Assembly: GCA_002368175.1 (NCBI GenBank)
Contig: AP018172.1
Location: 8,574,327 to 8,606,326, forward strand
Direction: 5' to 3'
DNA length: 32,000 nt
Source of the DNA: Calothrix sp. NIES-2098
Lineage (GTDB): Bacteria; Cyanobacteriota; Cyanobacteriia; Cyanobacteriales; Nostocaceae
Shown: piece after piece, positions 1,418 to 28,932 of the stretch
Numbering within the stretch: the stretch's first letter is position 1
How the letters are laid out: each line of letters begins with the position of its first letter
Translations under genes and position numbers: made by a program
The notes under the pieces: generated by a model
Databases searched by the model: none
What the model was told of the DNA's origin: nothing
The model's input: the letters and a program-made list of their open reading frames with translations, nothing else

Positions 1418-1538
1418 GCAAAGCCTAAAGAATTTATTACAAAGAATCAGAGCTAAAGTTTTCGATAAAACTTAAATAATTAGAACTAGATTGAAATAAT
1501 TTTCAATTTAGATTTAGCTAGGAAAATATATCGATATG

Positions 1539-2726: not shown

Positions 2727-2814
2727 AAGTTATTTTCTGCAAAAGTATCAATAGTAAAACTTGTGGATTTACAGCAGTATTACTACTTTTTTTCGATTGG
2801 TCTTGGTGTTGGGT

Positions 2815-4529: not shown

Positions 4530-6056
4530 ATGATATTAGCTATTAGCTTGTTAAGCTTAAAAGCTAAGTCAAACCAAAGTAACATTCGTTTATTGACTCG
4601 TGTATACCTTAGCTTTGGTCTGTTGGTGTGCTTTTTAGTGTTGCAACAAGGCTGGAACTTTTGGTTACTGTTCCTCAATCAAAACGCAGCTAATTGTATA
4701 ACCAATACTCTACAGGTAGAGCGTGAAACACAACATCTACTTAATGAATTGAGAGATGAGGAAAGAGCTACCCAGCAGCCTTACTATAGCCCGATGAGAA
4801 CCACCTTCTCAAACAACCTCGATAGGCTATCCCATCTTTTGCAAGATATGCCTACTCTCAAGACTCAACAGATTCATAAGATTAAATATCTCTATAATAA
4901 TTGGCACAGCCAAGTAAGGCAAAGGCGTATCCTTGAACCTATTCACAGCCTTACTACCGAGGAACAGGTTTCATTAATATCTATAATTAATAATATTCAA
5001 CTGCTGTCGGAGCAATACGAGCAACTTTTGCAAGAGCGCAGACACGATCTACTGCAACTATACCGTATATACACGGTTGTTAATATCGCCAGTACAATCT
5101 TGATTTTGCTAGTAATCAGCGGGAATATCTATTTTTTATATCAAAGAGTTGAGCTTCCCCTTCGTAATTTGATGAGGATAGGCGAGCTGTGGCAAGCGGG
5201 TCAGCTTGAAGCCCGACTCGGCTATGCTTCTGCTGATGAAATTGGTCGCCTCACTGAAATTCTCAATTCAATGGCTAACAAGGCTAGCCAGCGACAGCAA
5301 AACCTGAAAGCAAAAAACCAAAAACTTGAAGATCTGATTTCTGCTCTCTCCCATGACTTGCGTACCCCTCTCTTGGCTACTCGTAATACTTTGGACTGTA
5401 TGCTGAAAGGCGCTTTTGGATATGTCAGCCATTCCTTCAAGGAGGTGCTTGAAGAGTACCGACAAGCTAACGAAGATCTTCTCCAACTTGTGGAAACTCT
5501 GTTGGACATTTCCCGATATGAAAATACTAATAAGACTCATAATAAATTAATCTGCAATTCCCTAAATTGGGAAAACATATTGGCTAAAGTAATTACTTTA
5601 ATAGAAAGCACCTCTGATAAAAAAATAATCTTTACTTGTAAAATCTCGCCATCGCTGCCAGCTGTTTATGCTAATAGCTCAGAAATCCAACGGGTTTTGC
5701 AAAATCTATTGGATAACGCTGTGCGAGTGAGCCAGCCAAATACAGAAATTGTGCTTGAGGTAGTCACGCTAGGAGATACTCAAATAAAGGTCTCTGTCCA
5801 AGATCGCGGCCCAGGTATTACAGCGATAGAGAAGGAAAAACTCTTCCATCGCTTTATTCAAGGAAGAGGTCGGCGGGGAAAATCTGGGCTTGGTCTTTAC
5901 TTGTGTCGTCAAATTATCCAGAATCACGGAGGCTTGATTGGTGTTGATAGTGTTCTTGGAGAAGGTAGTACATTCTGGTTTACTTTACCAGTGGCTAAAG
6001 AAAAAGCTGAGATCCAGAATAAAGAACAACAGATTTTAGATAAACATGTACTGTGA
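4530..6056 (+). CDS. Membrane sensor histidine kinase (CHASE3-like periplasmic region, HAMP, HisKA, HATPase_c)
   Basis: 508 aa with two TM segments (LSFGLLVCFLVLQQ and IYTVVNIASTILILLVISGNIYFLY). HAMP-like segment: LPLRNLMRIGELWQAGQLEARLGYASADEIGRLTEILNSMA. H-box: ISALSHDLRTPL. N-box: NLLDNAVRVS. G1: DRGPGI. G2: GLGLYLCRQI. Confidence 0.92.
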   Translation: MILAISLLSLKAKSNQSNIRLLTRVYLSFGLLVCFLVLQQGWNFWLLFLNQNAANCITNTLQVERETQHLLNELRDEERATQQPYYSPMRTTFSNNLDRLSHLLQDMPTLKTQQIHKIKYLYNNWHSQVRQRRILEPIHSLTTEEQVSLISIINNIQLLSEQYEQLLQERRHDLLQLYRIYTVVNIASTILILLVISGNIYFLYQRVELPLRNLMRIGELWQAGQLEARLGYASADEIGRLTEILNSMANKASQRQQNLKAKNQKLEDLISALSHDLRTPLLATRNTLDCMLKGAFGYVSHSFKEVLEEYRQANEDLLQLVETLLDISRYENTNKTHNKLICNSLNWENILAKVITLIESTSDKKIIFTCKISPSLPAVYANSSEIQRVLQNLLDNAVRVSQPNTEIVLEVVTLGDTQIKVSVQDRGPGITAIEKEKLFHRFIQGRGRRGKSGLGLYLCRQIIQNHGGLIGVDSVLGEGSTFWFTLPVAKEKAEIQNKEQQILDKHVL

Positions 6057-6231
6057 TTTAAATATCATATTTCCCTGATATTTAAGGTGAAATTACTTAA
6101 GTTTAGCGAAACTTAAACACACTTCATCTAACCTTGATAGTTATGACTCTAAGCCTGGCAATAGTATTATGAGGGTTGGCAAGCATAAGTGCTTAAATAT
6201 ACAAGTACAAAAAGCAATATCTAGGAAAATT

Positions 6232-6909
6232 ATGGCTGATAGTGTTGAATTTAAAACTATAAAAGTTCTAGTAGTTGATGACCATCCCTTGATCCGCCGA
6301 GGCATGAAAGGGCAATTTTCCCTAGAAACAGGCTTTACTGTGGTTGGCGAAGCAGAGGATGGTGCCCAAGCTATTAAATTAGCAGCACAACTTCAGCCAG
6401 ATGTAATTTTAATGGATATCGATCTTCCCGATATAGATGGGATAACAGCTACGCAGAAGATCAAAAGTGACCAGACTGCTATTCGGATTCTTGCCTTGAG
6501 TGCATTTGATGACGATACCCAAGTGGTAGGGATGCTTGCAGCTGGAGCCGATGGCTATTGCCTAAAAAGCATTAAATGGGAACAACTGGTTGCTGTTATC
6601 CAATTAGTGCTCCAAGGTGGTGCTTATCTAGATCCTTCAATAGCGCAAAAGGTTGCAAGGATGCTCAAGCCAAGTTTTGTTTCTCAAGATACCCGCGCAT
6701 CTGAAGGGAATCAGCGACCGATTCTTAGTAGTCGCGAGCGCGAAGTTTTGAAATTAATTGCTCAAGGATACTCAAACCAAGAAATAGCTGATGAACTCTA
6801 CCTCTCATTAGGAACTGTCAAATCTTATGTACGTATGCTCTTGAATAAACTCAGCGTTGACGATCGCGTCCAAGCAGCAGCCATAGCTGTACGTGAGGGG
6901 TTAATTTAA
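6232..6909 (+). CDS. NarL/LuxR-family response regulator (canonical receiver + HTH)
   Basis: The ORF track starts at 6169. The ATG at 6232 (MADSVEFKTIKVLVVDDHP), preceded by AGGAAA, is the more likely start. The receiver has the DD pair, the phospho-acceptor context VILMDIDLPDIDG, LALSAF, and GADGYCLKS. The C-terminal LuxR HTH is LSSREREVLKLIAQGYSNQEIADELYLSLGTVKSYV. It sits directly downstream of the kinase. Confidence 0.92.
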   Translation: MADSVEFKTIKVLVVDDHPLIRRGMKGQFSLETGFTVVGEAEDGAQAIKLAAQLQPDVILMDIDLPDIDGITATQKIKSDQTAIRILALSAFDDDTQVVGMLAAGADGYCLKSIKWEQLVAVIQLVLQGGAYLDPSIAQKVARMLKPSFVSQDTRASEGNQRPILSSREREVLKLIAQGYSNQEIADELYLSLGTVKSYVRMLLNKLSVDDRVQAAAIAVREGLI

Positions 6910-7220: not shown

Positions 7221-8033
7221 ATAAATTACTTAAATATTTTTTTGGCAAGGAGTTTGGATTATACATTATATATCTGTCAAGAGATTAAATAAATTATTTA
7301 ATATTTCTTTAAGGAAATAAATGGGAATCAACAATCTTCCTAGAAATAGGAAACTTCTACATTTTTATGAATTCTTAATCTAAAAATTATTCTCACAGAA
7401 ATATTTTAATTATCAATCGCTACTAATTCACAAAAATTATCGTTCCAGCTTTGAGTATATCTTAATAAAAATCTACACCGAGGCAATAAATCTCTGTGAA
7501 GAGTAGATTTATTATGAATTTAAATATAAACCTTATGCTACATCCAAGTGGATAACTTGCTGGATAGGTTTATGCTTACTTAAGGATACTGTATATATCT
7601 AACTCTAAGTAGCCATTAGATAGTATTTCCTCAATCTGTAGGCATAGGAAACTGTAATAGCACCTAGGAAAATTTTTAGTAGCTGTTAAATCTTGATTTT
7701 GTCATTAAGTATGAATATGTAATGCAGTGGACTTCAAGCTTTTTATAGATAAATACTCTAATTATGTTTAAAGTTCGACTTCTCAGGAATTTATCGAAAT
7801 TTGTGCAATTTAGACATATAGCCGTACTTTCAGGAGATTACTTCTAAGCAACTTTACTGGCTGGAAATTACAACAATGTCCCAAAATTAATAAGCAATAA
7901 CTACCTTCATTGCAAATATCCCCAAGAACGCTTTTGCGATAGCCGTATTTTGGCGCAGCCGACAGAGTCATTAGGTGAAACGACCTTTTAGGTGGCTAAA
8001 TTCGGAAGCTGACTCACTGAAACTATAATTAAC

Positions 8034-8726
8034 ATGCCTAAACGTTCTCATAACCACTCTATTCATGGATCGCTTATAGACGAAGCCTATAAATCTCATT
8101 TAGCGAGTCTGCCGGTTCATCCTTCTGTCACCAGCAAGGTGAAGCGCATAATTGACATTCTCGGTGCTGCAATCGGACTAGGAATTACAGGCTTGGTAAT
8201 AATTCCTGTTACTATAGCGATTCAACTAGATAATCCTGGCCCCATCTTTTACAGTCAGATTCGCTGTGGTCTGAATGGCAAATCCTTTAGGATCTGGAAA
8301 TTTCGTTCTATGGTTGTCGGCGCAGATCGACACAAGCATCTGGTGAAGAATGAAGCGAAAGACCATCATATCTTCAAAAATCAGAATGACCCTCGGATTA
8401 CCCGTGTAGGCAGGTTTTTACGCCGCACCAGCATAGACGAACTTCCTCAGTTCTGGAACGTACTACGAGGGGAAATGAGTTTAGTTGGTACTCGACCACC
8501 GACTCCCGATGAAGTGATGCATTACTCAAATCACCACTGGCAAAGGCTGAATGTCAAACCAGGAATGACTGGAGAATGGCAGGCTAATGGACGATCTAGT
8601 ATTAAGTCGTTTGAAGAGATTGTGCGGATGGATTTAGATTATCAATATAAATGGTCTATTACCTATGATGTTAGTTTGATACTGAAAACGCTAAAGGTTG
8701 TGTTTAATAGGAATGGTGCTTTTTGA
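8034..8726 (+). CDS. Priming sugar transferase (undecaprenyl-phosphate hexose-1-phosphate transferase, EpsL/WcaJ C-terminal-domain type)
   Basis: 230 aa with one TM helix (IIDILGAAIGLGITGLVIIPVTIAI). Hallmarks of the bacterial sugar transferase family follow: PGPIFYSQIRCGLNGKSFRIWKFRSM and DELPQFWNVLRGEMSLVGTRPP. Confidence 0.92.
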   Translation: MPKRSHNHSIHGSLIDEAYKSHLASLPVHPSVTSKVKRIIDILGAAIGLGITGLVIIPVTIAIQLDNPGPIFYSQIRCGLNGKSFRIWKFRSMVVGADRHKHLVKNEAKDHHIFKNQNDPRITRVGRFLRRTSIDELPQFWNVLRGEMSLVGTRPPTPDEVMHYSNHHWQRLNVKPGMTGEWQANGRSSIKSFEEIVRMDLDYQYKWSITYDVSLILKTLKVVFNRNGAF

Positions 8727-14225: not shown

Positions 14226-15905
14226 ATGCAAGTCTATTGCACAAAACAACACGTAAATAATGGCAGTAACCGTTTTTGTACGCACTGCGGTGAACCCTTG
14301 CCTCTTCCTGTAGGGCAGCTGGTGGATAAACGCTACAAAATTATACGTCAATTAGGTGAAGGTGGTTTTGGGCGTACTTATTTGGCTGAGGATCGAAATC
14401 AATCTAACCAACAATGCGTACTTAAAGAATTTGCACCGCAAGTACAAGAACAGCAAGATTTACAAAAAGCTAAAGAGTTATTTGAGCGTGAAGCAAATGT
14501 CCTCAAAAAACTCCAGCATCCGCAAATCCCTAAGTTTCACGCCTCGCTACAAGAGAAGTTAGGGGGTAGAGATTTTTTCTTTTTAGTACAAGATTATATA
14601 GATGGTGATAATTATCGCCAGTTGTTAGAACAGCGTCAAAGTCAAGGACAGACTTTTAGTGAAGAAGAAGTACTGACATTATTAGAAAAAATCTTACCTG
14701 TGCTGTCCTATTTGCATTCCAAAGATGTAGTTCATCGCGATATTTCACCAGAGAATTTAATCTGGCGGCGTTCTGATAATTTACCAATATTAATTGACTT
14801 TGGTGGAGTGAAACAATTACCAGCTTCTCAAGGTTTTTGGTTTACCCAGTTGGCGGTAAATCATACTTTATTAGGGAAAAAAGGCTATGCTCCAGAAGAA
14901 CAACTAAGACAAGGCAAAGTTTTTTTTAGTAGCGATTTATATTCTTTAGCAGTGACAGCTTTGGTGCTGCTGACTGGAAAGGAACCACAAATGCTTTATG
15001 ACAGCTACCAAGGAATTTGGCTTTGGGGAAAAGAAATCAAAGTCAGTCCCAAGCTAGAAGCAGTGTTAAAAAAGATGTTGGCGTATCAACCTAACGCTCG
15101 CTATCAAAATGCTAGTCAAGTATTGAAAGATTTACCTTCAAAAGTTGCTACTAAACAACCAAATCCTTACATTACCAAAATTAAGACGATGGTGGTTGCT
15201 CCAGGGCGCAAACAGACTAATCAAATTATTAGTAAAATCCATAGCAAAACGCAACTAATAGCTAATAAAATGCCTCTTCCTGCTTGGCTGCGTCCTTTTG
15301 CTGTGAGTCTGGGAGGAACGGCTGTAGTAGTTTTAGTTGGTGTAGGCAGCTTTGCGGTAGTAAATGGCATTATTCGCAGTATATCGTCAATTTCTCTCCC
15401 AAAAATCCCATCAATATCGCTTCCTGCAAGTAAACCAGTTAGCGATAAAGGAACGAGTCGCATTAGTCAAATTTTAAGCCGCCGCCAACAACTGGAAATT
15501 CCCGAAGGATTTTTCATCCGCATGGTAGATAATTTGTTCTATTCACAAAAGCCAGAATTACAAGGACGCAGCCTGACCTCTAAACCAGAAGATGCCGCAT
15601 TACGAGATGAATGGTATGGTATTGCCGAAAACTTGTTGCAAAAACTGGAACAAGCTAATCTCAGTTCAGCGGCTCGTCGTAAACTAGGAAGCTACAGTCA
15701 GAGAGATTACGATACTTGGAGGCAACAAGCACGCAATGGACAGTTTGGTAACTATACAATAAATCAATTAACAAAAGATACATACGAACAATTCGATCGC
15801 TTGTTTCCCGGTCAGCCGCGTGGGAAACTGAATCAACAAACTTACGGTCAGATTTGGTATGCGATCGCAGCCGATCGAGTAAGTAAGGTACAATCTGGCA
15901 ACTAA
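14226..15905 (+). CDS. Membrane Ser/Thr protein kinase with N-terminal CHCC zinc ribbon and extracytoplasmic C-terminal domain
   Basis: Zinc ribbon: YCTKQHVNNGSNRFCTHCGEPL. Gly loop: LGEGGFGRTY. VAIK-type Lys: CVLKEF. Catalytic loop: HRDISPENL. DFG: LIDFGGV. APE-like: GYAPEEQ. TM helix: FAVSLGGTAVVVLVGVGSFAVV. The roughly 150-aa C-terminal domain is shared with the next gene. Confidence 0.9.
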   Translation: MQVYCTKQHVNNGSNRFCTHCGEPLPLPVGQLVDKRYKIIRQLGEGGFGRTYLAEDRNQSNQQCVLKEFAPQVQEQQDLQKAKELFEREANVLKKLQHPQIPKFHASLQEKLGGRDFFFLVQDYIDGDNYRQLLEQRQSQGQTFSEEEVLTLLEKILPVLSYLHSKDVVHRDISPENLIWRRSDNLPILIDFGGVKQLPASQGFWFTQLAVNHTLLGKKGYAPEEQLRQGKVFFSSDLYSLAVTALVLLTGKEPQMLYDSYQGIWLWGKEIKVSPKLEAVLKKMLAYQPNARYQNASQVLKDLPSKVATKQPNPYITKIKTMVVAPGRKQTNQIISKIHSKTQLIANKMPLPAWLRPFAVSLGGTAVVVLVGVGSFAVVNGIIRSISSISLPKIPSISLPASKPVSDKGTSRISQILSRRQQLEIPEGFFIRMVDNLFYSQKPELQGRSLTSKPEDAALRDEWYGIAENLLQKLEQANLSSAARRKLGSYSQRDYDTWRQQARNGQFGNYTINQLTKDTYEQFDRLFPGQPRGKLNQQTYGQIWYAIAADRVSKVQSGN

Positions 15906-15910
15906 GGAGC

Positions 15911-16036
15911 AGATGAGGGGAATGAGGAGGATGAGAGATTGTGGGGAGTGTGGGGAGTGTGGGGAGAAATCACTAATAAATCTTGACTCTGGACTCTTGA
16001 CGAATGACAAATGACTAATGACTATTAACTAATTAA
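15911..16036. repeat. Short tandem repeats (STRR-like) in the intergenic spacer
   Basis: ATGAGG-type repeats occur at 15913-15937. TGTGGGGAG occurs three times at 15940-15966. AATGAC(A/T) heptamers occur three times around 16003-16023. Such repeats are typical of heterocystous cyanobacterial intergenic regions. Confidence 0.8.
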
Positions 16037-16037
16037 T

Positions 16038-18191
16038 ATGCATCCTGTCTATTGCTCCAAAGGACACGAAAATCCCGCAGGGAGCCGCTTTTGCCTGAAT
16101 TGCGGTGAGAAGTTATTAGATACGCCTGTAAATTACAGTATCCAACCGGGACAAGTTTTAGGCGATCGCTATTTAATTGTGCGTCAAATTGGGCAAGGTG
16201 GTTTTGGACGTACTTATTTAGCTGAAGATGTTAACCGTTTTCGCGAACTTTGTGTTTTAAAAGAATTTTCTCCTCAAGTTCAAACGGCTTACGTTTTACA
16301 AAAAGCGGAAGAACTGTTTCAGCGAGAAGCCAGCGTTCTCTACAAGCTGCAACATCCCCAAATTCCGCGCTTTCGGGAAAATTTCCGCATCAATTTGGAT
16401 GGTAAAGAATACCTGTTTTTGGTGCAAGATTATGTAGAAGGGCAAACTTACAACTCTTTACTAAATACTCGCCGATCGCAAGGTTTGCGGTTTACAGAGG
16501 CGGAAATTAGACAGTTGTTGCAGCAAATCCTCCCAGTTTTGGAATACATACACTCTCTAGGCGTAATTCACCGCGATATTTCTCCCGATAATTTGATTCT
16601 GCGTAAGCTCGATCAATTACCAGTATTAATTGATTTTGGCGGCGTGAAACAAGTAGTAGCAACGGTCGCCTCTGAATATTACCAGCCTGGTGTTGTTGGA
16701 TCTCCCGCAGGAGCAACTTTACTGGGTAAGGTGGGATTTGCACCCCCAGAACAAATGCAAACTGGTTTGGTGTCTCCCCACAGCGATTTATATGCTTTGG
16801 CAGCTACTATGTTGGTTTTACTGACAGGAAAGCAACCACAAGAATTAATTGATACTTATACCCTAAATTGGCAATGGGACAGAGAAGTTAGCCTGAGTCC
16901 AGCTTTGGGGCAAATTTTAAATAAAATGCTATCTCCTAGACCAGGCGATCGCTATCAATCGGCTCGTCAAGTCTTAGAAGCACTCAACCCCCAGCAGGCG
17001 ATAAGCTATGTACCCACACAACCGCCTACCCAAGCACCTACACCTCCCACCACATCTGAGACTGTTGCGATCGCTTCTCCGCGTTACCCATCTCCCCCAG
17101 TTCCGATCTCGTCACCTCCACCTCAACCGACAAATTCTTGGACACCAACCAAAACCTTTCTCATTGTATTAGTAACAGCTGGGATTGCGGGAGTGGGTTT
17201 GTGGGGAGTAAATAATTTGCTGCGATCGGATTTGAATGGAGGCGATCCTACAATTTCACCTACACCCACACCTACAGCCACTACTACTCCGCCGCAGTAT
17301 TCCCCAGCAGAACAGCAACGCAAAGATAAATTGCGCGATCGCCGTCAACAGTTGGGTATAGACAATAATTTCTACGTTAACTTGGTAAATCAACTGTTTT
17401 GGGAACAAAATCCCAGTTTAAAAGGACGAACTCTGAGCGATCGCCCTGAAGATGAAAATTTGCGGGCACAATGGGATCGACTAGCAGGCGAAGTATTAGA
17501 CAAACTTGCACAACTGAGTACCAAAGCACGCCAGCAACTCGGAACTTACACATCAGCAGAACGCGATCGCTGGAAAGTGGAAGTTAACCAAGTCAACGTT
17601 GGTAGTCGTTCGTTATACGATTTAGGAGATGCTGCTTTCTTTGCTGCTTTCCCCACCCAGCGCAACAAAGATTTTGTCAATCAACCCATTGGACAAGTTT
17701 GGTATGGCTTTGTCAGTGACAAGCTGAGTGCGATTTTAGCTGGTAGCGCTTTTCAAAAAATTGTCTTTGATCAAGGTGCTACCAGTAAAACAGTTAGTGG
17801 TAATCTTAGCCCCAGTAATGGCAAAGTTTTTATTGCTGGACTTGCCAAAGAGCAATCTTTAGAAGTGAATCTCAAAGCCAATTCTAAAGTTTTGCTATCA
17901 ATATATTCACCCTCTGGCAAAATCAAATTTTTAGAAGATTCTACCCAGCGCAGTTTGTCAATCAAGCTACCTGAAGATGGATTTTATGAATTTGTGGTTG
18001 TAAATACAGGATCGCAAGCAACAGATTATCAACTAACCATCACAGCCCAAACTCCCACCCCACCAACACCGACACCAACTGTTACCGACACTCCTACACC
18101 CACACCCACCGTCACAACAACACCAACACCGACACCAACTGTCACCGACACTCCTACACCTACACCCACCCCAACATCTAATAGTCAATGA
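16038..18191 (+). CDS. Membrane Ser/Thr protein kinase paralog with CHCC zinc ribbon, Pro/Thr-rich linkers, shared extracytoplasmic domain, extra beta-rich domain and TP-repeat tail
   Basis: Zinc ribbon: YCSKGHENPAGSRFCLNCGEKL. Gly loop: IGQGGFGRTY. Lys: CVLKEF. Catalytic loop: HRDISPDNL. DFG: LIDFGGV. TM helix: FLIVLVTAGIAGVGLWGV. The domain RQQLGIDNNFYVNLVNQLFWEQNPSLKGRTLSDRPEDENLRAQW is homologous to the first kinase. The C-terminal TPTPTPTVTDTPTPTPT tail is encoded by two 60-bp direct repeats (18061-18110 and 18121-18170). Confidence 0.9.
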   Translation: MHPVYCSKGHENPAGSRFCLNCGEKLLDTPVNYSIQPGQVLGDRYLIVRQIGQGGFGRTYLAEDVNRFRELCVLKEFSPQVQTAYVLQKAEELFQREASVLYKLQHPQIPRFRENFRINLDGKEYLFLVQDYVEGQTYNSLLNTRRSQGLRFTEAEIRQLLQQILPVLEYIHSLGVIHRDISPDNLILRKLDQLPVLIDFGGVKQVVATVASEYYQPGVVGSPAGATLLGKVGFAPPEQMQTGLVSPHSDLYALAATMLVLLTGKQPQELIDTYTLNWQWDREVSLSPALGQILNKMLSPRPGDRYQSARQVLEALNPQQAISYVPTQPPTQAPTPPTTSETVAIASPRYPSPPVPISSPPPQPTNSWTPTKTFLIVLVTAGIAGVGLWGVNNLLRSDLNGGDPTISPTPTPTATTTPPQYSPAEQQRKDKLRDRRQQLGIDNNFYVNLVNQLFWEQNPSLKGRTLSDRPEDENLRAQWDRLAGEVLDKLAQLSTKARQQLGTYTSAERDRWKVEVNQVNVGSRSLYDLGDAAFFAAFPTQRNKDFVNQPIGQVWYGFVSDKLSAILAGSAFQKIVFDQGATSKTVSGNLSPSNGKVFIAGLAKEQSLEVNLKANSKVLLSIYSPSGKIKFLEDSTQRSLSIKLPEDGFYEFVVVNTGSQATDYQLTITAQTPTPPTPTPTVTDTPTPTPTVTTTPTPTPTVTDTPTPTPTPTSNSQ

Positions 18192-21161: not shown

Positions 21162-21920
21162 ATGGCTTCTCAACAAGAAAGCAAGAACAAACAAAGTGAA
21201 ACTGCCTCTAAAAAAGAAGGTGCAACAGCAACAAAAACCAATGAAAACAATAACTTGGAGCTAGATTCACTTTTTGAAGCACTTGAAGGAGACTTAACTT
21301 CTCTAGATAGTGAAGCTGCTGTTGATTTAATTGACCAGTGGTATAGTTCTTTGCACAAAGCCAAAGAACCAGAAATCAAAGAAATTGCCAATAGTCTCAA
21401 AAACCTCAAGCAACTTGTGAAAAGTGGTAAAGCCACAGGTCATGAAATTGGTGAAGTCCTCATCGAAATTGGCGACCAAACAAGCGACTTCGGTTCTGAC
21501 GCTAACAAAGAACTAAAGACTCCTTTGCAGAGATTGGGTAAGCAACTCAGCAAAATAGGTGTTTCCTTAGGTAAACAAGAAGACCGCGAGCAAATTGAAC
21601 AAATAGACTCGCTGGTAGAAACACTTGAGGGAGATCTGACAGAGATTGAGCCGGAAGTAGCGCAAGGTGCAATAGATACTTGGTACACCTTATTGCACAA
21701 GTCGGAGGATGAAAATCTCCAAGAAATCGCCAATGGATTGAAAGAACTTAAGCAACTGTTGAAGCGCAAAACTGCTAAAGGTGCAGACTTTGCACCAGTA
21801 CTGACAAAATTAGGCGAACAAACCGAACAAGCTGGTGCTGAAGCTGCAAGAGGATTTAAAGGCCCTCTGAAAAGGCTGGGTAAGTTACTGAGCAAAGCTG
21901 GTCAATCATTAGCTGAGTAA
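21162..21920 (+). CDS. Hypothetical acidic protein with an internal ~110-aa duplication
   Basis: 252 aa. Repeat A runs LDSLFEALEGDLTSLDSEAAVDLIDQWYSSLHKAKEPEIKEIANSLKNLKQLVKSGKATG...PLQRLGKQLSKIGVSLG. Repeat B runs IDSLVETLEGDLTEIEPEVAQGAIDTWYTLLHKSEDENLQEIANGLKELKQLLKRKTAKG...PLKRLGKLLSKAGQSLAE. The antisense ORFs are Ser/Cys/Leu-rich low complexity. I did not recognise any family. Confidence 0.7.
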   Translation: MASQQESKNKQSETASKKEGATATKTNENNNLELDSLFEALEGDLTSLDSEAAVDLIDQWYSSLHKAKEPEIKEIANSLKNLKQLVKSGKATGHEIGEVLIEIGDQTSDFGSDANKELKTPLQRLGKQLSKIGVSLGKQEDREQIEQIDSLVETLEGDLTEIEPEVAQGAIDTWYTLLHKSEDENLQEIANGLKELKQLLKRKTAKGADFAPVLTKLGEQTEQAGAEAARGFKGPLKRLGKLLSKAGQSLAE

Positions 21921-21940
21921 TTAAGCTGAATCAGATTTTC

Positions 21941-21997
21941 TTGTAGTAAGGACTTTAGCCCGAAGAACAGGACTAAAGCTCTTACTACAAACTTTTT
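21941..21997. terminator. Long imperfect hairpin between convergent genes (bidirectional terminator candidate)
   Basis: TTGTAGTAAGGACTTTAGCC - CGAAGAACA - GGACTAAAGCTCTTACTACAA is followed by ACTTTTT. It lies between the stop at 21920 (+) and the stop at 22003 (-). Confidence 0.55.
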
Positions 21998-22002
21998 AAC
22001 GA

Positions 22003-22635
22003 TCACAGCATAATCAAACCTAGCCTGACACCAACAGTCACAGCCTCGGTACGGGTTGAGACAGCCAGCTTTTGAAAAATCGATGAGATATGAAACTTTA
22101 CAGTATGCTCAGAAATCTGCAAATGTTTAGCGATCGCTTTATTACCTAAACCAGAACCGAGCATTTCTAATACTTCAATTTCTCTTGGCGTCAGAGTTTG
22201 CACGGGGGTAGTCGCTACTTTTTCCCGCATAGGCAATAAATCCAAAAAATCTGGGTGTAGCACCACTAAACCATCTGCGATCGCAATGACAGCAGCGATA
22301 ATTTCTGACTCTCTACTGTCATTAGGCAATATACCCCGAACGCCAGAACGGAATGCTGCTTCTATATCAATGCTTTCAATTTCCTCTGCGATCGTGAGAA
22401 ATCCTACAGGGTATTGCTCCTCTTGAAAAAGTAGCAATTTTTCCCACATAGATGCTTGTGCATTACTACTTAAATCTAGCAGTATTACATCCGGTTGTAA
22501 TTGCCCAACTTCCGCGATCGCGGTATCTAAATTTGATGCACTCCCCACAACATTCAACTGGGAATTGCTACTAACTACAGCCGATAAACCCGCCCGTACC
22601 ACCGGGGAAGTAGCAACTACCAACACCCGGATCAT
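22003..22635 (-). CDS. LuxR/NarL-family DNA-binding regulator with a degenerate (pseudo-)receiver domain
   Basis: 210 aa. The C-terminal HTH is LTPREIEVLEMLGSGLGNKAIAKHLQISEHTVKFHISSIF. The N-terminal receiver reads MIRVLVVATSPVVRAGL, so AT replaces the DD metal-binding pair. It keeps DVILLDLSS. It has GVRGILPND where the conserved Lys is expected. Its start overlaps the upstream protease stop by 4 nt (ATGA). Confidence 0.88.
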   Translation of the reverse strand: MIRVLVVATSPVVRAGLSAVVSSNSQLNVVGSASNLDTAIAEVGQLQPDVILLDLSSNAQASMWEKLLLFQEEQYPVGFLTIAEEIESIDIEAAFRSGVRGILPNDSRESEIIAAVIAIADGLVVLHPDFLDLLPMREKVATTPVQTLTPREIEVLEMLGSGLGNKAIAKHLQISEHTVKFHISSIFQKLAVSTRTEAVTVGVRLGLIML

Positions 22636-23474
22636 GTAGCCTCCACCGCAGTTTTATCACTCTGCAATCGCACATAAACCACAAGTTGTTGACCGCTACG
22701 CCAGAGTTGTAAAGGAATTGATTCTTGATTTTGGTGTTGTTGGAGATATTTGCCCAGGTCATCACTGTTAGTAAATAATTGCCCAGAAATTCCGATTAAC
22801 ACATCACCAATTTCTACACCTGCGATCGCCGCCGTACTCTCAGGAAGAACAGACAACACCAATAAACCGAGGTTGCGTCTACCCACCCAAACAGGTTGTA
22901 AAGTCACCCCCAATCGCGGACGATTTGGAGCTTGCAAAAAGCGATTGACAGCTAAACTGGGGATCGCTACAGCCAAACCGTTAACAACCATTGTATTAAT
23001 CCCCACAACTCGACCGAGACAATCAGCCAGCGGCCCTCCAGAATTACCCGGATACAGCCGGATATCAGCCATAACTGCTTTTTGATGATAAGCGTGAATA
23101 ATCCCTAAAGTAACAGCACCACTATCAGCCAACGGATTACCCACCGCCAACACTAACTCACCCACTCGCAATGCATCAGAATCACCAATAGTTGCAGTGT
23201 GTAAGTCAGTAGCAGTAATTTTCAGAGCCGCTAAATCTTGCTGTGGGTCAAAGTGGGTACGCACAGCGTCAAATACTCGTCCGTCAGCCAATTCCACCTT
23301 TGCTTGGTTGCTGGTTGCGACATGGGCATTGGTAATAATTAACCCATCACTTTGCCAGATGACACCAGAACCAACTCCTTGAGAATTGCTTTGAACTTTG
23401 ACTGTACTGTGGCGTAACTTAGCAGCGAGAGTTGCCAATTCATCGGTAAGGTTTGTAATTTTTGTAGTAATCAT
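22632..23474 (-). CDS. HtrA/DegP-like S1C serine protease with one PDZ domain; no signal peptide evident
   Basis: 280 aa with an intact catalytic triad context: GSGVIWQSDGLIITNAHV (His), DLAALKI (Asp) and GNSGGPLAD (Ser). The PDZ-like C-terminus is LGLLVLSVLPESTAAIAGVEIGDVLIGISG. The N-terminus MITTKITNLTDELATLAAKL is not hydrophobic. Confidence 0.9.
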   Translation of the reverse strand: MITTKITNLTDELATLAAKLRHSTVKVQSNSQGVGSGVIWQSDGLIITNAHVATSNQAKVELADGRVFDAVRTHFDPQQDLAALKITATDLHTATIGDSDALRVGELVLAVGNPLADSGAVTLGIIHAYHQKAVMADIRLYPGNSGGPLADCLGRVVGINTMVVNGLAVAIPSLAVNRFLQAPNRPRLGVTLQPVWVGRRNLGLLVLSVLPESTAAIAGVEIGDVLIGISGQLFTNSDDLGKYLQQHQNQESIPLQLWRSGQQLVVYVRLQSDKTAVEAT

Positions 23475-23516
23475 ATTCCCTTCTGCCCTCTGCTTTCTTG
23501 CTTCTGCCTTAATTAG

Positions 23517-24515
23517 TTAACGAGAATGGGACGAACCTCTCCTACCATGTCGCCCTCTTCTGTGGTGAGAGCGATCGCTAGATTTTTCCGAATCTTCTTG
23601 ATTTGAGTACTGCTCAAATGGTCGTTCGCCAACTGTAATTGCTAATTCAACTAACACCCCACCCCGGATAACTTGCAGTGGGACAGTTTTACCGACGCGA
23701 TCGCTACTATTTAACAGCGCCATTACATCACCCGTATCACTCACGGTTGTGCCATCGAATGCTACCAACACATCCCCAAGCAGTACACCTGCATGATCGG
23801 CAGGGCCAGCAGGCTCGACATTGACAACAATTACACCAGTAGCAGAAGTTAAACTCAAAGCTGCGATCAGATTATTAGGTAAGCGTACAGGTTGCATTCC
23901 TACACCTAAATAACCGCGTGCAATGTGTCCCTTGGCTAACAATTGATCGACTACACGATTGACTGTAGCTGCGGGAATAGTTAAAGCAGTACCGCGCCGT
24001 CCTGATGTGTTCATGCCTACCACATAACCAGCCGCATCTACAAGCGCCCCACCCGCAAAACCAGGGTAAAGAGTCATATCGGGACGGATGAATTGGTCGA
24101 TATTACCACCACTCATGCTGCGCCAAGCACCACTAATTACACTCACAGTACCTAAAGCCGCACGCAACTCGCCTGCGTTGCTTCTCGCTATTCCTAAGAC
24201 TAAATGGCCAATTTTCAGTGTTGTTGCATCGCCAATTTTCGCCACCGGAGTTTCCCCATCTTGGAGTTGGAAAACAGCTATATCAGTGCTAGAGTCATGT
24301 CCCAAATGCGTAGCAGCGACAGAACGACCATCAAACAGAGTGACAGTGATTTCGTCATAACGCTGAAGCGACTCATCGGAAGTAACAATAATACCCTGAC
24401 GCCAGTGAATTCCACTAGAAGAAATGCGCGTGCCAGCATTCACTGCAACTACAGCATTTCCTGCTTGTTCTACGGTATCAGCTAAACTATTGGACAATTC
24501 TAGTAATGAAGACAT
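23517..24515 (-). CDS. HtrA-like pseudoprotease (S1C fold + PDZ, catalytic His and Ser substituted) with His/Arg-rich tail
   Basis: 332 aa and alignable by eye to the neighbouring protease. SSGIHWRQGIIVTSDESL aligns to GSG...ITNAHV, so the His is replaced by an acidic residue. DIAVFQL retains the Asp. GFAGGALVD aligns to GNSGGPL, so Ser becomes Ala. The PDZ is ATGVIVVNVEPAGPADHAGVLLGDVLVAFDG. The tail is SSDRSHHRRGRHGRRGSSHSR. Confidence 0.88.
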   Translation of the reverse strand: MSSLLELSNSLADTVEQAGNAVVAVNAGTRISSSGIHWRQGIIVTSDESLQRYDEITVTLFDGRSVAATHLGHDSSTDIAVFQLQDGETPVAKIGDATTLKIGHLVLGIARSNAGELRAALGTVSVISGAWRSMSGGNIDQFIRPDMTLYPGFAGGALVDAAGYVVGMNTSGRRGTALTIPAATVNRVVDQLLAKGHIARGYLGVGMQPVRLPNNLIAALSLTSATGVIVVNVEPAGPADHAGVLLGDVLVAFDGTTVSDTGDVMALLNSSDRVGKTVPLQVIRGGVLVELAITVGERPFEQYSNQEDSEKSSDRSHHRRGRHGRRGSSHSR

Positions 24516-24979
24516 CTAATTTCTCCACAAACGTTTTCAGATGCTCATATCCTGTCTTGTTTTACTGATAACTGGCATCAGAAAATTGGGGAGAATGTAA
24601 CCTAGAAAAATGGCTAGTATCGAAGCGCAAAATTTGCAATAGCCTCTAAAACAGTTGCAACACTTAATTAATGCATTCTAGATCAAAGTATTTCAATGCC
24701 TTCTGATTATTTACAATATTACTCAAAATTTAAACTGGATAAATCAAAACCTTGCCCAGAGAGGTGATTCACAAATATGCATATATTAAAAATCAAGTAA
24801 TAACCTTACATGCAAGTAAATTTATTTATATTATTTGGGTTATTTAATTAATATTAAAAACAAGCAAAATCAATTTAAACTTTATTGCTATCTTATCTAT
24901 CTTGATTAAATCATAATTATTATAATTCAGCATTCAGTAGCCAAAATTTAGGAGTGGTCTATTAAACATCAAAAGTCTC

Positions 24980-25017
24980 AGATACCCAACTTATTCAAGA
25001 ATTCGGGTATCTTTTTG
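24980..25017 (+). terminator. Isolated terminator-like hairpin in the AT-rich spacer
   Basis: AGATACCC-N17-GGGTATCT is followed by TTTTTG. No ORF lies upstream of it on the + strand. Confidence 0.25.
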
Positions 25018-25959
25018 TTCATAGCTCATTTATGACTGTGATAGGGGCTAAATTGTAAAATTCAGCGCCCAATATTCAGAACCCAAAATCCTGAATTCCT
25101 ATAGGAAATTAATTCTTTAAATCTTCTAATTCCTGAATTCTCTCTTCTGAATTTTGACTCTAAATCTGCTAATTTTATAGTTTTAGCATCAATATAAACA
25201 CAAGAAAGTAAGTCATCTTTTTTATAAACTTTATGTAAAAAATAGCACATTCTATCTTTGCTTGACAGAATTACTCAGAGAATTGTAAATTTTAATTGAG
25301 GTATTTATATTTCTTGTTAGTTAAATAGTTTACTAAAAAAGGTGAGAAATAGACGAGATAATTTACTACTTATAGAATATTTGTTAAAAAAAAATAGCAA
25401 ACTAATAGCTGTTAGCTCATAGTAATTATGTTAACTCACTGTCTATCAATTTACAAGCTTGATATTAACATAATATCTATGGTAAATTTTCCAGGTATTG
25501 CCAAGCTGAGATGTCAGATTTGGCGATCGCAGCAATTGTGGGTTGCCAATAAACCATCAATATTAACGAGAAGTGTTGCAATTTTTATTGCAATATTCAC
25601 TCCGATAGGCCAATATCTAACAGATTTTGTCATGCAATATTTAAGAATAGCGAACCAACGATTAACAGTTATTCTTCAAGTAAAATTTACAATTTTGTGA
25701 AGAGGATGATTTACTGACAAAAATCCCACTATTATACTAATTTCTACCTATTTTCTAGTAAGCTATTAAATTATCGATCTCAAATATCTAATGATTTTAG
25801 ATGATTTCAGACGAAATTAGGCAAAAATATCAGATTTTTTGATTCCCTATTGGTTTTGGCAGGCTTGTAGTTCACTTTTCTATTTTCATTAGGAATTGGC
25901 TGATTAATATTAACGACTTGGGTTGGGTATACCAATTGACTAAAAGGTAAAAATGATAT

Positions 25960-28932
25960 ATGAATAATGGACTTCATGCCGAGAAAAATGGGATGAAATC
26001 AACATACCATCCCCCTGCTTTAAATTCACCATTTACTCTTGATATCGCTCGCGGTTCTGCTGCGGAAAATATTGCGAATACTCAAAATAACAAAAGTACA
26101 TCTCACACAGAAAAGAAATCTTTATTGCAGAGATTTTATAACCTTTCTCTTAGCCGCAAACAACTAATTGCTTTAATAGTATCTGAAGTCATTACTATTT
26201 TAGGACTCAGCGTAGTAAGTAGATGGTTAATTAGTCACAATTTTCAAAATACATTGCTTGAACAAGCAAAGTCAGAATTGGCTGTTACAGATATTAATTA
26301 CAATATTCAGATCGATGAGATGGGATTGGTATCTCTTAGTCAATCTGATAACCCTACAATTATTAAATCTGCGATTTTGCATTCTTCTGGACAAGCAGTA
26401 AGTCAGCGATTGCAAGCCGAAGTCAAGCAAATCCTAGAAAACGAAATCAAAGCTGGAAAAATTGATTATGCTACCCTAGTGGGTAAAGATTTTAAGATTA
26501 TTGCAAATGCCAATGCTAATCGGGAAGCTGAAATTTTTAATCCCGATAATTTAGTGAGTGAAGTATTCAATAATCTTCAACAGATGAAAGCTACGAGAAT
26601 TATTAGTGCATCGGAGCTTAGTCAAGAATTACCTTTGTTAGCGAATGCTCTTAACAATCAAGATGCTCTGATTCGTTACACAGTAACGCCCGTCAAAAAT
26701 CCAACTACACAAGCTGTTGTTGGTGCTTTAGTAACTGGTGATATTGTTAATGGTAAAGACCAGATTGTTAGAGACACATTAAAAGCTACAAATGGCGGCT
26801 ATAGTGCTGTATATTTACGTCAACCAACAGGTGAATTTACTTTAGCAACAGCGTTAGAACAAAGTAAATCTCAGAATTTAGATCGGGCACAAGCTAATAT
26901 CAAATTACCCCAAGCAGCAAAATCTTTCTTAGAAGCAGCAGCAACAGCCAAAGGTAATGTAGTTACTACAAAGTTAAATTTAGGAAACAAAACTTATGCA
27001 ATGGCTGCTAAAGCTGTACCCAATACGATCGTGGAAACAGACGAGCAATCAATCGCTAATTTTGATGAAAAATCGGTAGCTATTTTAGTGAGAGGAACTC
27101 CAGAAACTGCTCTGAGTCAATTGCTACAAAATAATTTTTGGTTAGAATTAATTGCAATTATTTTAGCATTAACACTCATTTTATTTTGGACATTCGTTTT
27201 GAAGCGGGGAGTTGTTCAACCTATCCAGCAGCTAGGGCAAACAGCTAAAAAATTTAATCAAGGCGATCGCGCTGCTCGTACTGAGATTTTTGCTAATGAT
27301 GAAATCGGACAATTAGCTAACACTTTTAACCAAATCGCCGATCGGATGACGCAACAACTCATCCGCCAAGAAAATGAAGCAAAATTAGCGCAAGTCGTCA
27401 ATGAAATTACGGCTCGTTTTCGGGGATCGCTCAACACTACACATATCCTGAATGTAGCAGTCACCAGTATCAGAGAAGCGATCGCAGTCGATCGCGCGAT
27501 CGTCTATCGCTTTGATGACAATTGGCAAGGTAAGATTATTGCCGAATCCGTTGGTAGGGATTGGCCTAAAGCCTTAGGAAAAGAGATTGCAGACCCTTGT
27601 TTTGCCAGTGATTATGTTCATAAATACCAGCAAGGCCGAGTTCAAGCGCTAGAAAACATTTATGCAGCTGGATTAACCGAGTGTCATCTTCACCAACTAG
27701 AACAATTTGCAGTCAAAGCGAATATAGTTGCACCCATTTTGCTCGATAACAAGCTATATGGCTTGCTGATAGCACACCAATGTTCCAGTACTCGGAATTG
27801 GCAACAATTGGAAATTGAGTTGTTAAAGCAAGTAGCAATTCCAGTTGGCTATGCATTAGAGCAATCATATCTTCTAGAACAAATAGAGACAGCTCGTTCC
27901 CGTGCTGAAACTGCTGCTATTGAGCAACGCCAACAAAATGAAGCACTACAAGAACAAATACTCACTCTCCTTAGAGATATTGAAGGTGCATCCCAAGGCG
28001 ATTTGACTGTGCGTTCGGAAGTCACATCTGGAGAACTTGGTACTGTTGCTGACTTTTTTAACTCAATTGTGGAAAGTCTCAGAGCGATAGTCACTAAAGT
28101 CAAAACATCAGCTATCCAGGTAAATACAGCCATTGGCGAAAACGAAGTAGCTATCCGCCAACTTGCGGCCAAAGCACTCCAACAAGCAGACGATATCAGC
28201 CTCAGTTTGGTTAGTGTTGACCAAATGAAAAGTTCGATTGAATCTGTAGCAGAAAACGCGAGAAAAGCTGCCTTAGTTGCTCATCAAGCATCCTGTACTG
28301 CTGAAGAAAATGGCCAAGCTATGGATCTGGCTGTACAAAATATTTTAAAACTGCGCTCAACCATTGGCGACACGGCAAAAAAAGTCAAGCGTCTGGGAGA
28401 ATCTTCGCAACAAATTTCTCATGTAGTGGCCTTAATTAACCAAATAGCTACTCAAACTAACTTTTTAGCGATCAACGCCGGACTTGAAGCCACAAGATCG
28501 GGTGTAGAAGGTGAAGGTTTTGCGATTATTGCTGAAGAAGTTGCTTCGCTAGCAGCTCGTTGCTCTGATGCTACTCAAGAAATTGCCCAAATTGTCGCCA
28601 AAATTCAACGGGAAACTAGTGAAGTTGTCACAGCAATGGAATTAGGAACTAATCAGGTAGTAGAAGGTACTAACATCGTCGAACAGGCTAAAAGTTCCCT
28701 GAGTCAGATTCTTGATGTCTCCAAACAAATTGATGATTTAGTACAATCAATTTCTTGGGCAACATCATCTCAGGTAGAAACATCGCAAGCAGTGAGCAAA
28801 CTAATGCAAGAAATTTCCCAAGTTTCTACACTTACTAGCAACTACTCGCGCCTGGCTTCGCAATCTCTAAAACAGACTTTTGAAATTTCCCAGGAATTAC
28901 AAGCAGCTGTAGAAACTTTCAAAGTCAATTGA
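25960..28932 (+). CDS. Methyl-accepting chemotaxis protein with large periplasmic domain, HAMP, a DXCF cyanobacteriochrome-type GAF domain and an MCP signalling domain (PixJ/TaxD1-like photoreceptor)
   Basis: 990 aa. TM1 is LIALIVSEVITILGLSVVS and TM2 is FWLELIAIILALTLILFWTFVL. HAMP: QPIQQLGQTAKKFNQGDRAARTEIFANDEIGQLANTFNQIADRM. GAF: DRAIVYRFDDNWQGKIIAESV...EIADPCFASDY...GLTECHLHQLEQFAVKANIVAPIL. The highly conserved MCP hairpin is VALINQIATQTNFLAINAGLEATRSGVEGEGFAIIAEEV. Confidence 0.92.
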   Translation: MNNGLHAEKNGMKSTYHPPALNSPFTLDIARGSAAENIANTQNNKSTSHTEKKSLLQRFYNLSLSRKQLIALIVSEVITILGLSVVSRWLISHNFQNTLLEQAKSELAVTDINYNIQIDEMGLVSLSQSDNPTIIKSAILHSSGQAVSQRLQAEVKQILENEIKAGKIDYATLVGKDFKIIANANANREAEIFNPDNLVSEVFNNLQQMKATRIISASELSQELPLLANALNNQDALIRYTVTPVKNPTTQAVVGALVTGDIVNGKDQIVRDTLKATNGGYSAVYLRQPTGEFTLATALEQSKSQNLDRAQANIKLPQAAKSFLEAAATAKGNVVTTKLNLGNKTYAMAAKAVPNTIVETDEQSIANFDEKSVAILVRGTPETALSQLLQNNFWLELIAIILALTLILFWTFVLKRGVVQPIQQLGQTAKKFNQGDRAARTEIFANDEIGQLANTFNQIADRMTQQLIRQENEAKLAQVVNEITARFRGSLNTTHILNVAVTSIREAIAVDRAIVYRFDDNWQGKIIAESVGRDWPKALGKEIADPCFASDYVHKYQQGRVQALENIYAAGLTECHLHQLEQFAVKANIVAPILLDNKLYGLLIAHQCSSTRNWQQLEIELLKQVAIPVGYALEQSYLLEQIETARSRAETAAIEQRQQNEALQEQILTLLRDIEGASQGDLTVRSEVTSGELGTVADFFNSIVESLRAIVTKVKTSAIQVNTAIGENEVAIRQLAAKALQQADDISLSLVSVDQMKSSIESVAENARKAALVAHQASCTAEENGQAMDLAVQNILKLRSTIGDTAKKVKRLGESSQQISHVVALINQIATQTNFLAINAGLEATRSGVEGEGFAIIAEEVASLAARCSDATQEIAQIVAKIQRETSEVVTAMELGTNQVVEGTNIVEQAKSSLSQILDVSKQIDDLVQSISWATSSQVETSQAVSKLMQEISQVSTLTSNYSRLASQSLKQTFEISQELQAAVETFKVN

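Follow-up and report, generated by a model that had tools for sequence, protein, structure and literature searches.

HtrA proteases are textbook enzymes of extracytoplasmic quality control and signalling; the classical Deg/HtrA proteins have a trimer as their basic unit and form homo- or hetero-oligomers, and a hydrophobic free C-terminus is the type of ligand bound by HtrA PDZ domains such as those of DegS and DegP. In the DegS-RseA-sigmaE pathway of Escherichia coli and the AlgW-MucA-AlgU pathway of Pseudomonas, a single-PDZ HtrA protein controls a transcription factor and its PDZ domain reads hydrophobic C-termini; the enzymes there sit in the membrane or the periplasm, and their substrate is an anti-sigma factor. 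Here we describe a three-gene cassette, A-B-C, in a 32,000-nucleotide (nt) window (the whole stretch of DNA that was analysed) of Calothrix sp. NIES-2098 (assembly GCA_002368175.1, contig AP018172.1, positions 8,574,327 to 8,606,326, forward strand). A and B encode HtrA-family proteins and C encodes a LuxR-type transcription factor. Unlike the DegS and AlgW systems, the cassette is leaderless, has a LuxR-type partner, forms one overlapping operon and can have one dead paralog. An earlier note on this DNA had read the three genes as a cytoplasmic switch made of a pseudoprotease, an active protease and a phosphorylation-independent regulator. The evidence presented below makes it very probable, by comparison of sequences, that the cassette is a conserved operon with a dedicated regulator.

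Two-component control of htrA genes is known from CpxAR-degP, CssRS-htrA/htrB and MprAB-pepD. The likeness to these systems is that a dedicated regulator adjoins or controls an HtrA gene, with feedback by the protease in some of them; they comprise a sensor kinase, a canonical receiver and exported proteases, whereas the cassette has no kinase, a degenerate receiver and leaderless proteins. Atypical regulators that act independently of phosphorylation include CsgD, VpsT, Streptomyces BldM/WhiI, JadR1 and the cyanobacterial OmpR-type NblR. Regulators of the CsgD/VpsT type keep the receiver fold, have lost the phosphorylation residues and are controlled by a ligand or partner instead of a kinase; C shares both the fold and the loss. 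We know of no atypical LuxR-family regulator encoded in an operon with HtrA-family proteins.

In magnetotactic bacteria, MamO is a degenerate HtrA pseudoprotease encoded near the active MamE, whose proteolysis it promotes, and such pseudoproteases arose repeatedly among these bacteria (PMC4794232). Both are magnetosome-membrane proteins with extra domains, and MamO binds metal via a di-histidine motif (PMC4794232). The likeness to the cassette lies in the pairing of a dead and a live HtrA protein and in the many ways in which the catalytic residues are replaced, as they are in the A family; the difference is that no transcription factor is involved there, and A and B scored far below the cut-offs of the NCBIfam MamO and MamE models. 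In the CspC/CspA-CspB system of Clostridioides difficile, dead serine protease paralogs are reported to sense or regulate an active paralog (PMC6636752, PMC7200643), but these are subtilisin-family spore germination proteins, and neither a PDZ domain nor a transcription factor is involved. Passages of a 2016 review of cyanobacterial Deg/HtrA proteins report Deg genes with a mutated peptidase in Nostoc punctiforme ATCC 29133 and Anabaena variabilis ATCC 29413 and suggest their neo-functionalisation (PMC4877387); these genes are probably orthologs of gene A. Those passages mention no active paralog, LuxR regulator, leader absence, upstream element or non-cyanobacterial distribution. Apart from such inactive Deg genes, the literature searched held no description of the cassette, its spread beyond cyanobacteria or its upstream element, in keeping with the earlier note, which knew of no function for the trio, and the cassette is apparently undescribed.

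The three genes lie co-directionally on the minus strand (Table 1), and the 42-nt gap between A and B and the 4-nt overlap between B and C (ATGA), both reported earlier, were matched by the open reading frame (ORF) coordinates. A scan of one genome per species yielded 80 loci, all from Nostocales or close relatives. Among the 76 with enough downstream sequence, 70 carried A-B-C; in three others A was followed directly by C (L007, L020 and L053) and was still dead, two had a truncated B and no C, and one had A alone. In the two truncated cases, both from metagenome-assembled genomes (L057, Nostoc sp. isolate P12642 bin 1; L077, Nostoc sp. S4), B was cut after the protease domain, C was missing, and G-rich short tandem repeats (GGGGAGTGTGGGGAG...) stood in place of the end of B and of C, as if the cassette had been disrupted recently. 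Flanking genes differed between Nostocales genera and were unrelated between lineages. Since the substitutions described below are fixed across 80 related genomes, and the gene order is kept despite different flanks, both are more than chance. The 4-nt B-C overlap was present in 66 of 72 Nostocales loci and in 37 of 49 loci from soil. The A-B spacer of Nostocales ranged from 0 to about 700 nt and often consisted of tandem repeats; outside this order, A and B overlapped by 4 nt in 29 of 60 loci and lay within 5 nt of each other in 56. The longest spacers, in Nostoc (L016, L026, L049, L004 and others), reached 300-700 nt through tandem repeats of about 40 nt (TTGAGCCTCTGAACTCGGAACTTCCACCTTTTTGCTCGGACG-like) and heptamer-type repeats, as at L026:6877-7485, inside an otherwise tightly coupled operon.

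To follow the family further, we used an exhaustive search of 1.8 billion cluster representatives (50%-identity clusters), which returned 1,024 representatives that match A with E below 1e-30. They are about 300 residues long and align almost from the first residue, and the named members belong to cyanobacteria, Eremiobacterota, Acidobacteriota, Gemmatimonadota and Chloroflexota. Genomic look-ups of seven distant members all gave A-B-C; neighbouring genes of the cassette overlapped or lay a few bases apart, and the flanks were unrelated. Three of these cassettes are from other cyanobacteria, with either Glu/Ala (L081) or His/Ser (L082, L085) in the catalytic His and Ser columns of A; the others are from Blastocatellia (L086), Chloroflexota (L088), Gemmatimonadales (L090) and one further contig of 158 kb. 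A metagenome scan with a search pattern that required GFSGG added 80 further loci, mostly from soil. The 44 non-redundant soil loci that were long enough comprised 35 with A-B-C, seven with A-C and two rearranged, and C was present beside A in all 44. Reciprocal look-ups from three C-family proteins found HtrA-like genes directly upstream. Thus, the order is kept in Nostocales, other cyanobacteria and further phyla, as the neighbourhood survey proposed in the earlier note was meant to establish, and the cassette is not confined to cyanobacteria: it also occurs in Acidobacteriota, Chloroflexota, Gemmatimonadota and soil metagenome contigs, which makes at least four phyla. No fourth gene, such as a kinase or an anti-regulator, recurred in the Nostocales or soil neighbourhoods. 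In a single case (L173, GCA_041748155.1 contig, 1-8636), genes for an LTXXQ/Spy-CpxP-like protein, a 408-residue HtrA and a rhomboid protease came before an A-like gene and C, and a third HtrA-like gene came after C; this links the cassette to a cluster resembling a protein-folding stress locus.

The changing surroundings could also mark a mobile module for stress response or defence, built like the protease-repressor pairs ImmA/ImmR, IrrE/DdrO and CapP/CapH, that moves horizontally and derepresses itself on insult. The flanks differ in every lineage, Nostoc carneum NIES-2107 carries a full A-B-C on a 554-kb plasmid (L009; plasmid1, AP018181.1 434969-447835), and the copy at L082 adjoins a run of toxin-antitoxin genes. 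Against such a module, inheritance within Nostocales looks vertical, with identity tracking taxonomy; no effector or mobility gene travels with the cassette; and the proteases are of the HtrA type, whereas those of ImmA/ImmR-like systems are metalloproteases. The system-specific protein models of PADLOC gave no match to A, B or C beyond generic domains, namely the protease domain of RT-Protease_XI and the helix-turn-helix (HTH) domain of CARF and CasR proteins. We regard this explanation as very improbable.

Protein A carries Trypsin_2 (61.7 bits) and PDZ_2 (66.9 bits) domains in Pfam, that is, the chymotrypsin-fold protease domain followed by PDZ that defines the HtrA (S1C) fold. In the AlphaFold2 model (mean predicted local distance difference test, pLDDT, 86) an N-terminal helix precedes two beta-barrels and one PDZ domain, and DegQ, MucD, DegS and AlgW were the best Foldseek matches (E about 1e-25). 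We located the active-site columns with phmmer alignments to solved HtrA structures (MucD, DegP-like and Helicobacter pylori HtrA). The catalytic His column holds Glu48 ('iivtsdes' on 'yvltnnhv'), the Asp is kept as Asp78 ('stdiav' on 'rtdvav') and the Ser column holds Ala154 ('pgfagga' on 'pgnsggp'), so the replacement of His by an acidic residue and of Ser by Ala, noticed earlier in the letters, stands. A therefore lacks the His-Asp-Ser triad and is a homolog of the family, not an active member. Glu48 was found in all 81 Nostocales sequences and the Ala in 76 of 81. Across Nostoc loci, A was 76-80% identical to the window protein and B 68-75%; because A is more conserved than B, it is a functional pseudoenzyme and not a decaying gene. 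Judged by its residues, A is a true pseudoprotease under strong constraint. The carboxylate-binding loop of its PDZ domain, R-G-Y-L-G, varied hardly or not at all, whether the member was active or dead. Several A orthologs (P0021, P0053, P0088, P0101, P0107, P0118, P0119) are named 'LuxR family transcriptional regulator' in public records; this name is wrong, given that only Trypsin_2 and PDZ domains are present, and was probably carried over from the neighbouring gene C.

Most lineages have an intact A, and, as the comparison of family members indicates, the dead form, seen in Nostocales and in some other cyanobacteria, is derived. Among the best 150 relatives of A, about 94 had His-Asp-Ser, usually within GFSGG, and about a third lacked His and/or Ser, with many different replacements, including His to Glu 17 times; we used this set because the metagenome pattern itself contained GFSGG and the frequency of dead A could not be read from it. 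Cyanobacterial A proteins showed His with Ser (P0361, P0450), Glu with Ser (P0397, P0422) and Glu with Ala (Nostocales, P0419). From these states, the loss of catalysis in cyanobacteria looks stepwise, His to Glu first and then Ser to Ala.

The His/Arg-rich disordered tail that had been ascribed to A was borne out by its composition (4 His and 7 Arg in 33 residues) and by low pLDDT, below 50 at residues 302-332. The tail motif HHRRGRHGRRG was conserved only in Calothrix, Tolypothrix, Aulosira and Mojavia loci (L001-L008), and most other Nostocales A proteins end 1-4 residues past GERP.

Protein B also has Trypsin_2 and PDZ domains. Alignment to HtrA structures placed its triad at His51, Asp80 and Ser145, within TNAHV, QDLAAL and GNSGGP; these correspond to the TNxHV, D(L/I)A and GNSGGP motifs of active HtrA (S1C) enzymes, and the intact triad read earlier in B holds. 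It was intact in 75 of 75 Nostocales sequences and in 61-65 of 66 soil sequences, the remainder being gaps. The PDZ domain was missing in many relatives of B, which are about 200 residues long and keep the triad.

Both ORFs begin at the first possible start codon past the upstream stop; since the listed ORFs are maximal, neither A nor B can have a longer N-terminus or an upstream leader. Residues around 30 of A and B align with residues about 65-110 of deposited HtrA chains, so that both proteins start where the mature domain of periplasmic HtrAs starts. Inspection of hydrophobicity, with no dedicated signal-peptide predictor run, found no basic-hydrophobic leader at either N-terminus, and the hydrophobic windows were confined to the PDZ domain or core strands. 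Neither protein has the signal peptide or membrane anchor of classical Deg/HtrA enzymes, as the earlier reading had it, and their NCBIfam HhoA/HhoB/HtrA scores, 137 and 150 bits, stayed well under the cut-off of 450. From these features we infer that A and B are cytoplasmic.

For protein C, Pfam reported GerE (73.3 bits, residues 146-200) and a Response_reg domain barely above threshold (31.1 bits, cut-off 30.2); the canonical LuxR-type regulator of the same window (6169..6909), taken as a yardstick, reached 99.2 bits for its receiver. The scores of C against named NCBIfam regulator models were far below all cut-offs (best MadR, 119 bits against 300). The AlphaFold2 model (pLDDT 87) consists of a receiver fold, a disordered linker (residues 137-144, pLDDT below 50) and a four-helix HTH. 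Residues 1-120 form the five beta-alpha units of a receiver (pLDDT 80-96), which superpose on the VraR receiver with a template modelling score of 0.86 and a root-mean-square deviation of 2.1 A, and the helices of residues 150-204 form a GerE domain. Structural matches were LiaR, VraR, DesR, NarL, VpsT and RcsB. The recognition helix, ISEHTVKFH, and the last helix were invariant or nearly so in 23 sequences across phyla.

Alignments to NarL, ChrA and VraR showed that the acidic pair D13/D14 of NarL is replaced by A8/T9, that the phospho-acceptor D59 is retained as D54, and that K109 corresponds to N105. The loss of the acidic pair (VVATSP) and of the Lys (GILPND) had both been noticed earlier and at the right places, with the correction that the Lys column holds the Asn of the second motif and not the Pro. 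In Nostocales, A8 was found in 76, T9 in 72 and Asp54 in 76 of 76 sequences, and the Lys column held S, G, N, D or T. In 56 sequences from outside Nostocales, the first acidic position was A, S, V or I and the second was variable; the acceptor column held Asp in 24, E in 14 and A in 7, with G and others also present; and the Lys column held R in 35, H in 7, otherwise another residue such as S and never K. Across the family the pair was never acidic at both positions, and the Thr/Ser column was V or A in most members, although the alignment is ambiguous there. On these residues, the receiver of C is a pseudo-receiver in the whole family, and its degeneration has gone further outside Nostocales than in the window protein.

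Could C nevertheless be an ordinary two-component output that a kinase encoded elsewhere phosphorylates on Asp54, with A and B leaving the cytoplasm along an export route not yet recognised? Asp54 is kept in every Nostocales C, the fold matches the phospho-activated LiaR, VraR and DesR, and genomes of this kind are generally known to hold many orphan kinases. Yet no member has the acidic pair or the Lys, over half of the C proteins from outside Nostocales have another residue in place of the acceptor Asp, the ORFs of A and B are not extendable upstream and their products start at the mature HtrA domain, and most relatives of A, at about 300 residues, align almost from the first one. No histidine kinase was conserved beside the cassette in about 120 loci, an unlinked kinase being outside the reach of a neighbourhood survey. 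The nearest one in the window (4530..6056) lies at a distance of 16 kb and has a canonical LuxR-type regulator of its own as partner (6169..6909), which agrees with the earlier remark that no cognate kinase is adjacent. Residues and neighbourhoods both lack what marks a phosphorylated response regulator, and normal phospho-regulation of C is very unlikely; the two-component explanation as a whole deserves hardly any credence. The phosphorylation-independent nature proposed earlier for C is thus favoured by the missing pair and Lys in every member examined.

Upstream of A, 74 Nostocales loci shared a block of about 80 nt in otherwise unrelated intergenic DNA. It has three parts, a distal box, a proximal box and a -10-like block (Table 1), and the boxes were present in 64-71 of the 74 regions. 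The arrangement was recognisable in other cyanobacteria, Blastocatellia, Chloroflexota and Gemmatimonadales, and in some GC-rich loci (L107, L090) the two boxes stand out clearly as direct repeats, again with a period of 24 nt. Expectation-maximisation motif discovery in 60 non-Nostocales upstream regions returned nCCCgCCCATTCGGCCGATGCC (20.6 bits), located 80-110 nt from the start codon in nearly all of them; 92% of these sequences scored above the 99th percentile of shuffled ones, a figure from the training set and so not an independent test. Independently, a matrix built without Nostocales training picked the same position in 72 of 74 held-out Nostocales regions. Each locus has one copy at a fixed distance from the start codon, and no second promoter or operator was found in the long A-B spacers of Nostoc, which consist of tandem repeats. 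Further copies of the proximal box were searched for in the window; none exceeded the shuffle-derived threshold, below which the cassette's own AT-rich box also fell. The Nostocales-style pattern had, save one isolated match, no occurrence outside the A upstream region in the Nostocales loci of about 12 kb.

Other readings of the element were tried and rejected. An RNA hairpin was considered, but the distal CTAG...CTAG stem showed no compensatory changes and the complementary arms in the proximal box were missing in many lineages; a site acting at the DNA level is preferred because the hairpin is not kept across lineages. Rfam gave no relevant match over 21900..25960, the sole hit being a chance small nucleolar RNA (E = 0.2). 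A sigma-54-like reading of GGCACG lacks the -12 element. To our knowledge, cyanobacteria have no sigma-54. A simple sigma-70 -35/-10 pair does not fit either, given the spacing of about 21-23 nt between the proximal box and the -10-like block. Many non-Nostocales leaders also have a stem-loop between the -10-like block and the ribosome-binding site of A, constant in position and variable in sequence (L082, L085, L093, L094, L140, L147, L129 and others; for example GCCACGCAACAATGCGTGGC, GCGGGCGCTGACGCCCGC and GGGACAAGTCGTCCC). The folding z-score of 49 leaders had a median of -1.5 and was below -2 in 43%, and the differing stem sequences suggest a real leader hairpin; Nostocales leaders showed no clear equivalent.

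Only A, B and C travel with this element, and C is their sole DNA-binding protein, with a near-invariant recognition helix, for which reasons binding of the boxes by C is the most economical explanation. We consider it probable, from this co-occurrence, that C binds the upstream element, and such binding would imply one promoter and autoregulation of A-B-C.

Table 1. Features of the cassette in the Calothrix sp. NIES-2098 window (window coordinates)
Feature	Position	Strand	Description
Gene A	23517..24515	-	Leaderless HtrA-family pseudoprotease, 332 aa: N-terminal helix, chymotrypsin-like domain, one PDZ
His/Arg-rich tail of A	23520..23618	-	Residues 300-332, ends ...SHHRRGRHGRRGSSHSR; predicted disordered, clade-specific
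A-B spacer	23475..23516	-	42 nt
Gene B	22632..23474	-	Leaderless HtrA-family protease, 280 aa, intact triad, weaker PDZ
Gene C	22003..22635	-	LuxR/GerE-type transcription factor, 210 aa
C pseudo-receiver domain	22276-22635	-	Residues 1-120
C HTH	22024-22200	-	Residues 146-204
Conserved non-coding element upstream of A	24540..24618	-	Three parts; candidate operator and promoter for C
Distal box	24601-24617	-	CTAGCCATTTTTCTAGG
Proximal box	24574-24593	-	CTCCCCAATTTTCTGATGCC; repeats the distal-box core, direct repeats 24 nt apart
-10-like block	24540-24563	-	AAAACAAGACAGGATATGAGCATC

In the window, a 1.44-kb AT-rich intergenic region (24516-25959, GC about 0.29-0.38), in which nothing was recognised besides the element adjoining A, separates A from a divergent gene (25960..28932) for a 990-residue HAMP-GAF-MCP-signal protein. 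That gene adjoins the cassette only in L001-L004, L007 and L009-L012, which are some Calothrix/Tolypothrix/Aulosira-type and a few Nostoc loci. Convergent with C lies a plus-strand gene (21162-21920) for a 252-residue protein of two similar halves, each with ...D.WY..LHK......EIAN.LK.LKQL... and a closing ...PL.RLGK.LSK.G.SL...; it had no match in Pfam or NCBIfam and adjoins the cassette only in L001, L005, L006 and L012. The window also holds the histidine kinase and LuxR-type response regulator pair mentioned above (4530-6909), an NB-ARC/TPR STAND-type protein (11369-13690) and two adjacent Ser/Thr protein kinase genes (14226-18191), none of which was conserved next to the cassette in other genomes.

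Taken as a whole, the explanation that we favour, with a confidence slightly short of even, is a self-contained autoregulated operon of two cytoplasmic HtrA paralogs and a dedicated LuxR-type factor. C would bind both direct-repeat boxes just upstream of the -10-like site and control transcription of A-B-C. Its receiver would not be switchable by phosphorylation, and its activity would instead be set by the proteins under its control: A and/or B would bind C, possibly through the free hydrophobic C-terminus of C in the PDZ groove. C may also be cleaved, either by B or, in other phyla, by an active A. The pool of free C would then reflect how far other clients occupy the HtrA proteins, a homeostatic logic that would be that of sigma32-DnaK or DegS-RseA-sigmaE, but cytoplasmic. 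In Nostocales, A would have lost catalysis and been kept as a non-catalytic PDZ-bearing subunit acting as a sensor, scaffold, holdase or allosteric partner of B and C.

Feedback of A or B on C is suggested by three features: the genes overlap across phyla, which preserves matched production; C has no plausible phosphorylation input or other partner gene; and A-C pairs persist after the loss of B. A post-translational action of A or B on C is, on such genomic grounds, a tentative proposal that we hold with less confidence than the operon as a whole. As for the contact, every complete C ends with G and four residues, almost always hydrophobic, directly before the stop. This terminus was GLIML in 71 of 75 Nostocales sequences and GLILL, GLIML, GLVML and similar elsewhere, and it lies beyond the last helix in the model. 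By analogy with known HtrA ligands, we treat the C-terminus of C as a possible PDZ ligand of A, as a lead only.

The main rival, which we rate as rather unlikely, is a plain regulator: C would sense a ligand or partner through its pseudo-receiver and switch on A and B, without feedback on C. The cassette would then serve cytoplasmic protein quality control, with B as the protease and the dead A as a holdase. The conserved element and the single promoter position fit this explanation equally well. Known LuxR-type regulators with degenerate receivers are controlled by ligands and not by proteases, as is VpsT, a structural match of C that is controlled by cyclic di-GMP, and it is established for DegP that HtrA proteins can act as chaperones without catalysis. 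However, no ligand-binding motif was recognised in C, the persistence of A-C pairs without B is left unexplained, and the 4-nt overlaps kept across phyla suggest a matched production typical of physically cooperating proteins.

Proteolysis could instead be the core of the switch, B cleaving C or the tail of A with dead A as an adaptor and so controlling a regulon elsewhere in the genome. The triad of B is intact everywhere, the linker of C predicted to be disordered (137-144) would be a natural candidate for a cleavage site, and a pseudo-HtrA that activates its HtrA neighbour is known from MamO/MamE (PMC4794232). But 3 of 76 Nostocales and 7 of 44 soil loci keep A and C without B, which weakens cleavage of C by B as the core mechanism; the tail of A is clade-specific; and no distant regulon was visible in the window, by a weak scan, or in the Nostocales loci of about 12 kb. 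We judge this switch improbable. The cytoplasmic trio switch of the earlier note accordingly survives in part: the conserved unit, the dead A, the degenerate C and the lack of leaders all stand, while B is not essential and the tail of A is not general.

Several points weigh against the autoregulated operon that we favour. The link between C and the element consists solely of co-conservation, and the boxes could be used to activate or repress transcription or be bound by a different factor. The -10-like block fits the sigma-70 consensus poorly, and a simple promoter scan gave nothing notable there. The terminus of C directly follows the last HTH helix, itself highly conserved, and its conservation may reflect DNA binding or dimerisation instead of PDZ docking. 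The cytoplasmic location of A and B is deduced from leader absence. Finally, if C regulates only its own operon, the genomes with A-C only would induce merely a non-catalytic protein, which would be odd unless A is chaperone-like or a sensor.

Going one step further, a widespread and hitherto unrecognised cytoplasmic signalling pathway, in which HtrA-type PDZ proteins read exposed hydrophobic C-termini and so govern a LuxR regulator that needs no phosphorylation to drive its own operon, is unlikely enough to be offered with reserve. If true, at least four phyla would have, in the cytoplasm, an equivalent of the DegS/sigmaE envelope-stress pathway, and the Nostocales paralog A would have turned into a mere sensor or allosteric subunit. 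Signalling by HtrA proteins in the cytoplasm would be unexpected, and a leaderless HtrA family tied, across distant phyla, to a kinase-less LuxR regulator and a common DNA element would represent an intracellular way of controlling genes or proteostasis that is so far unstudied. The cassette predicts a defined operator sequence and a candidate PDZ ligand, and its active-A and dead-A versions make it a natural experiment.

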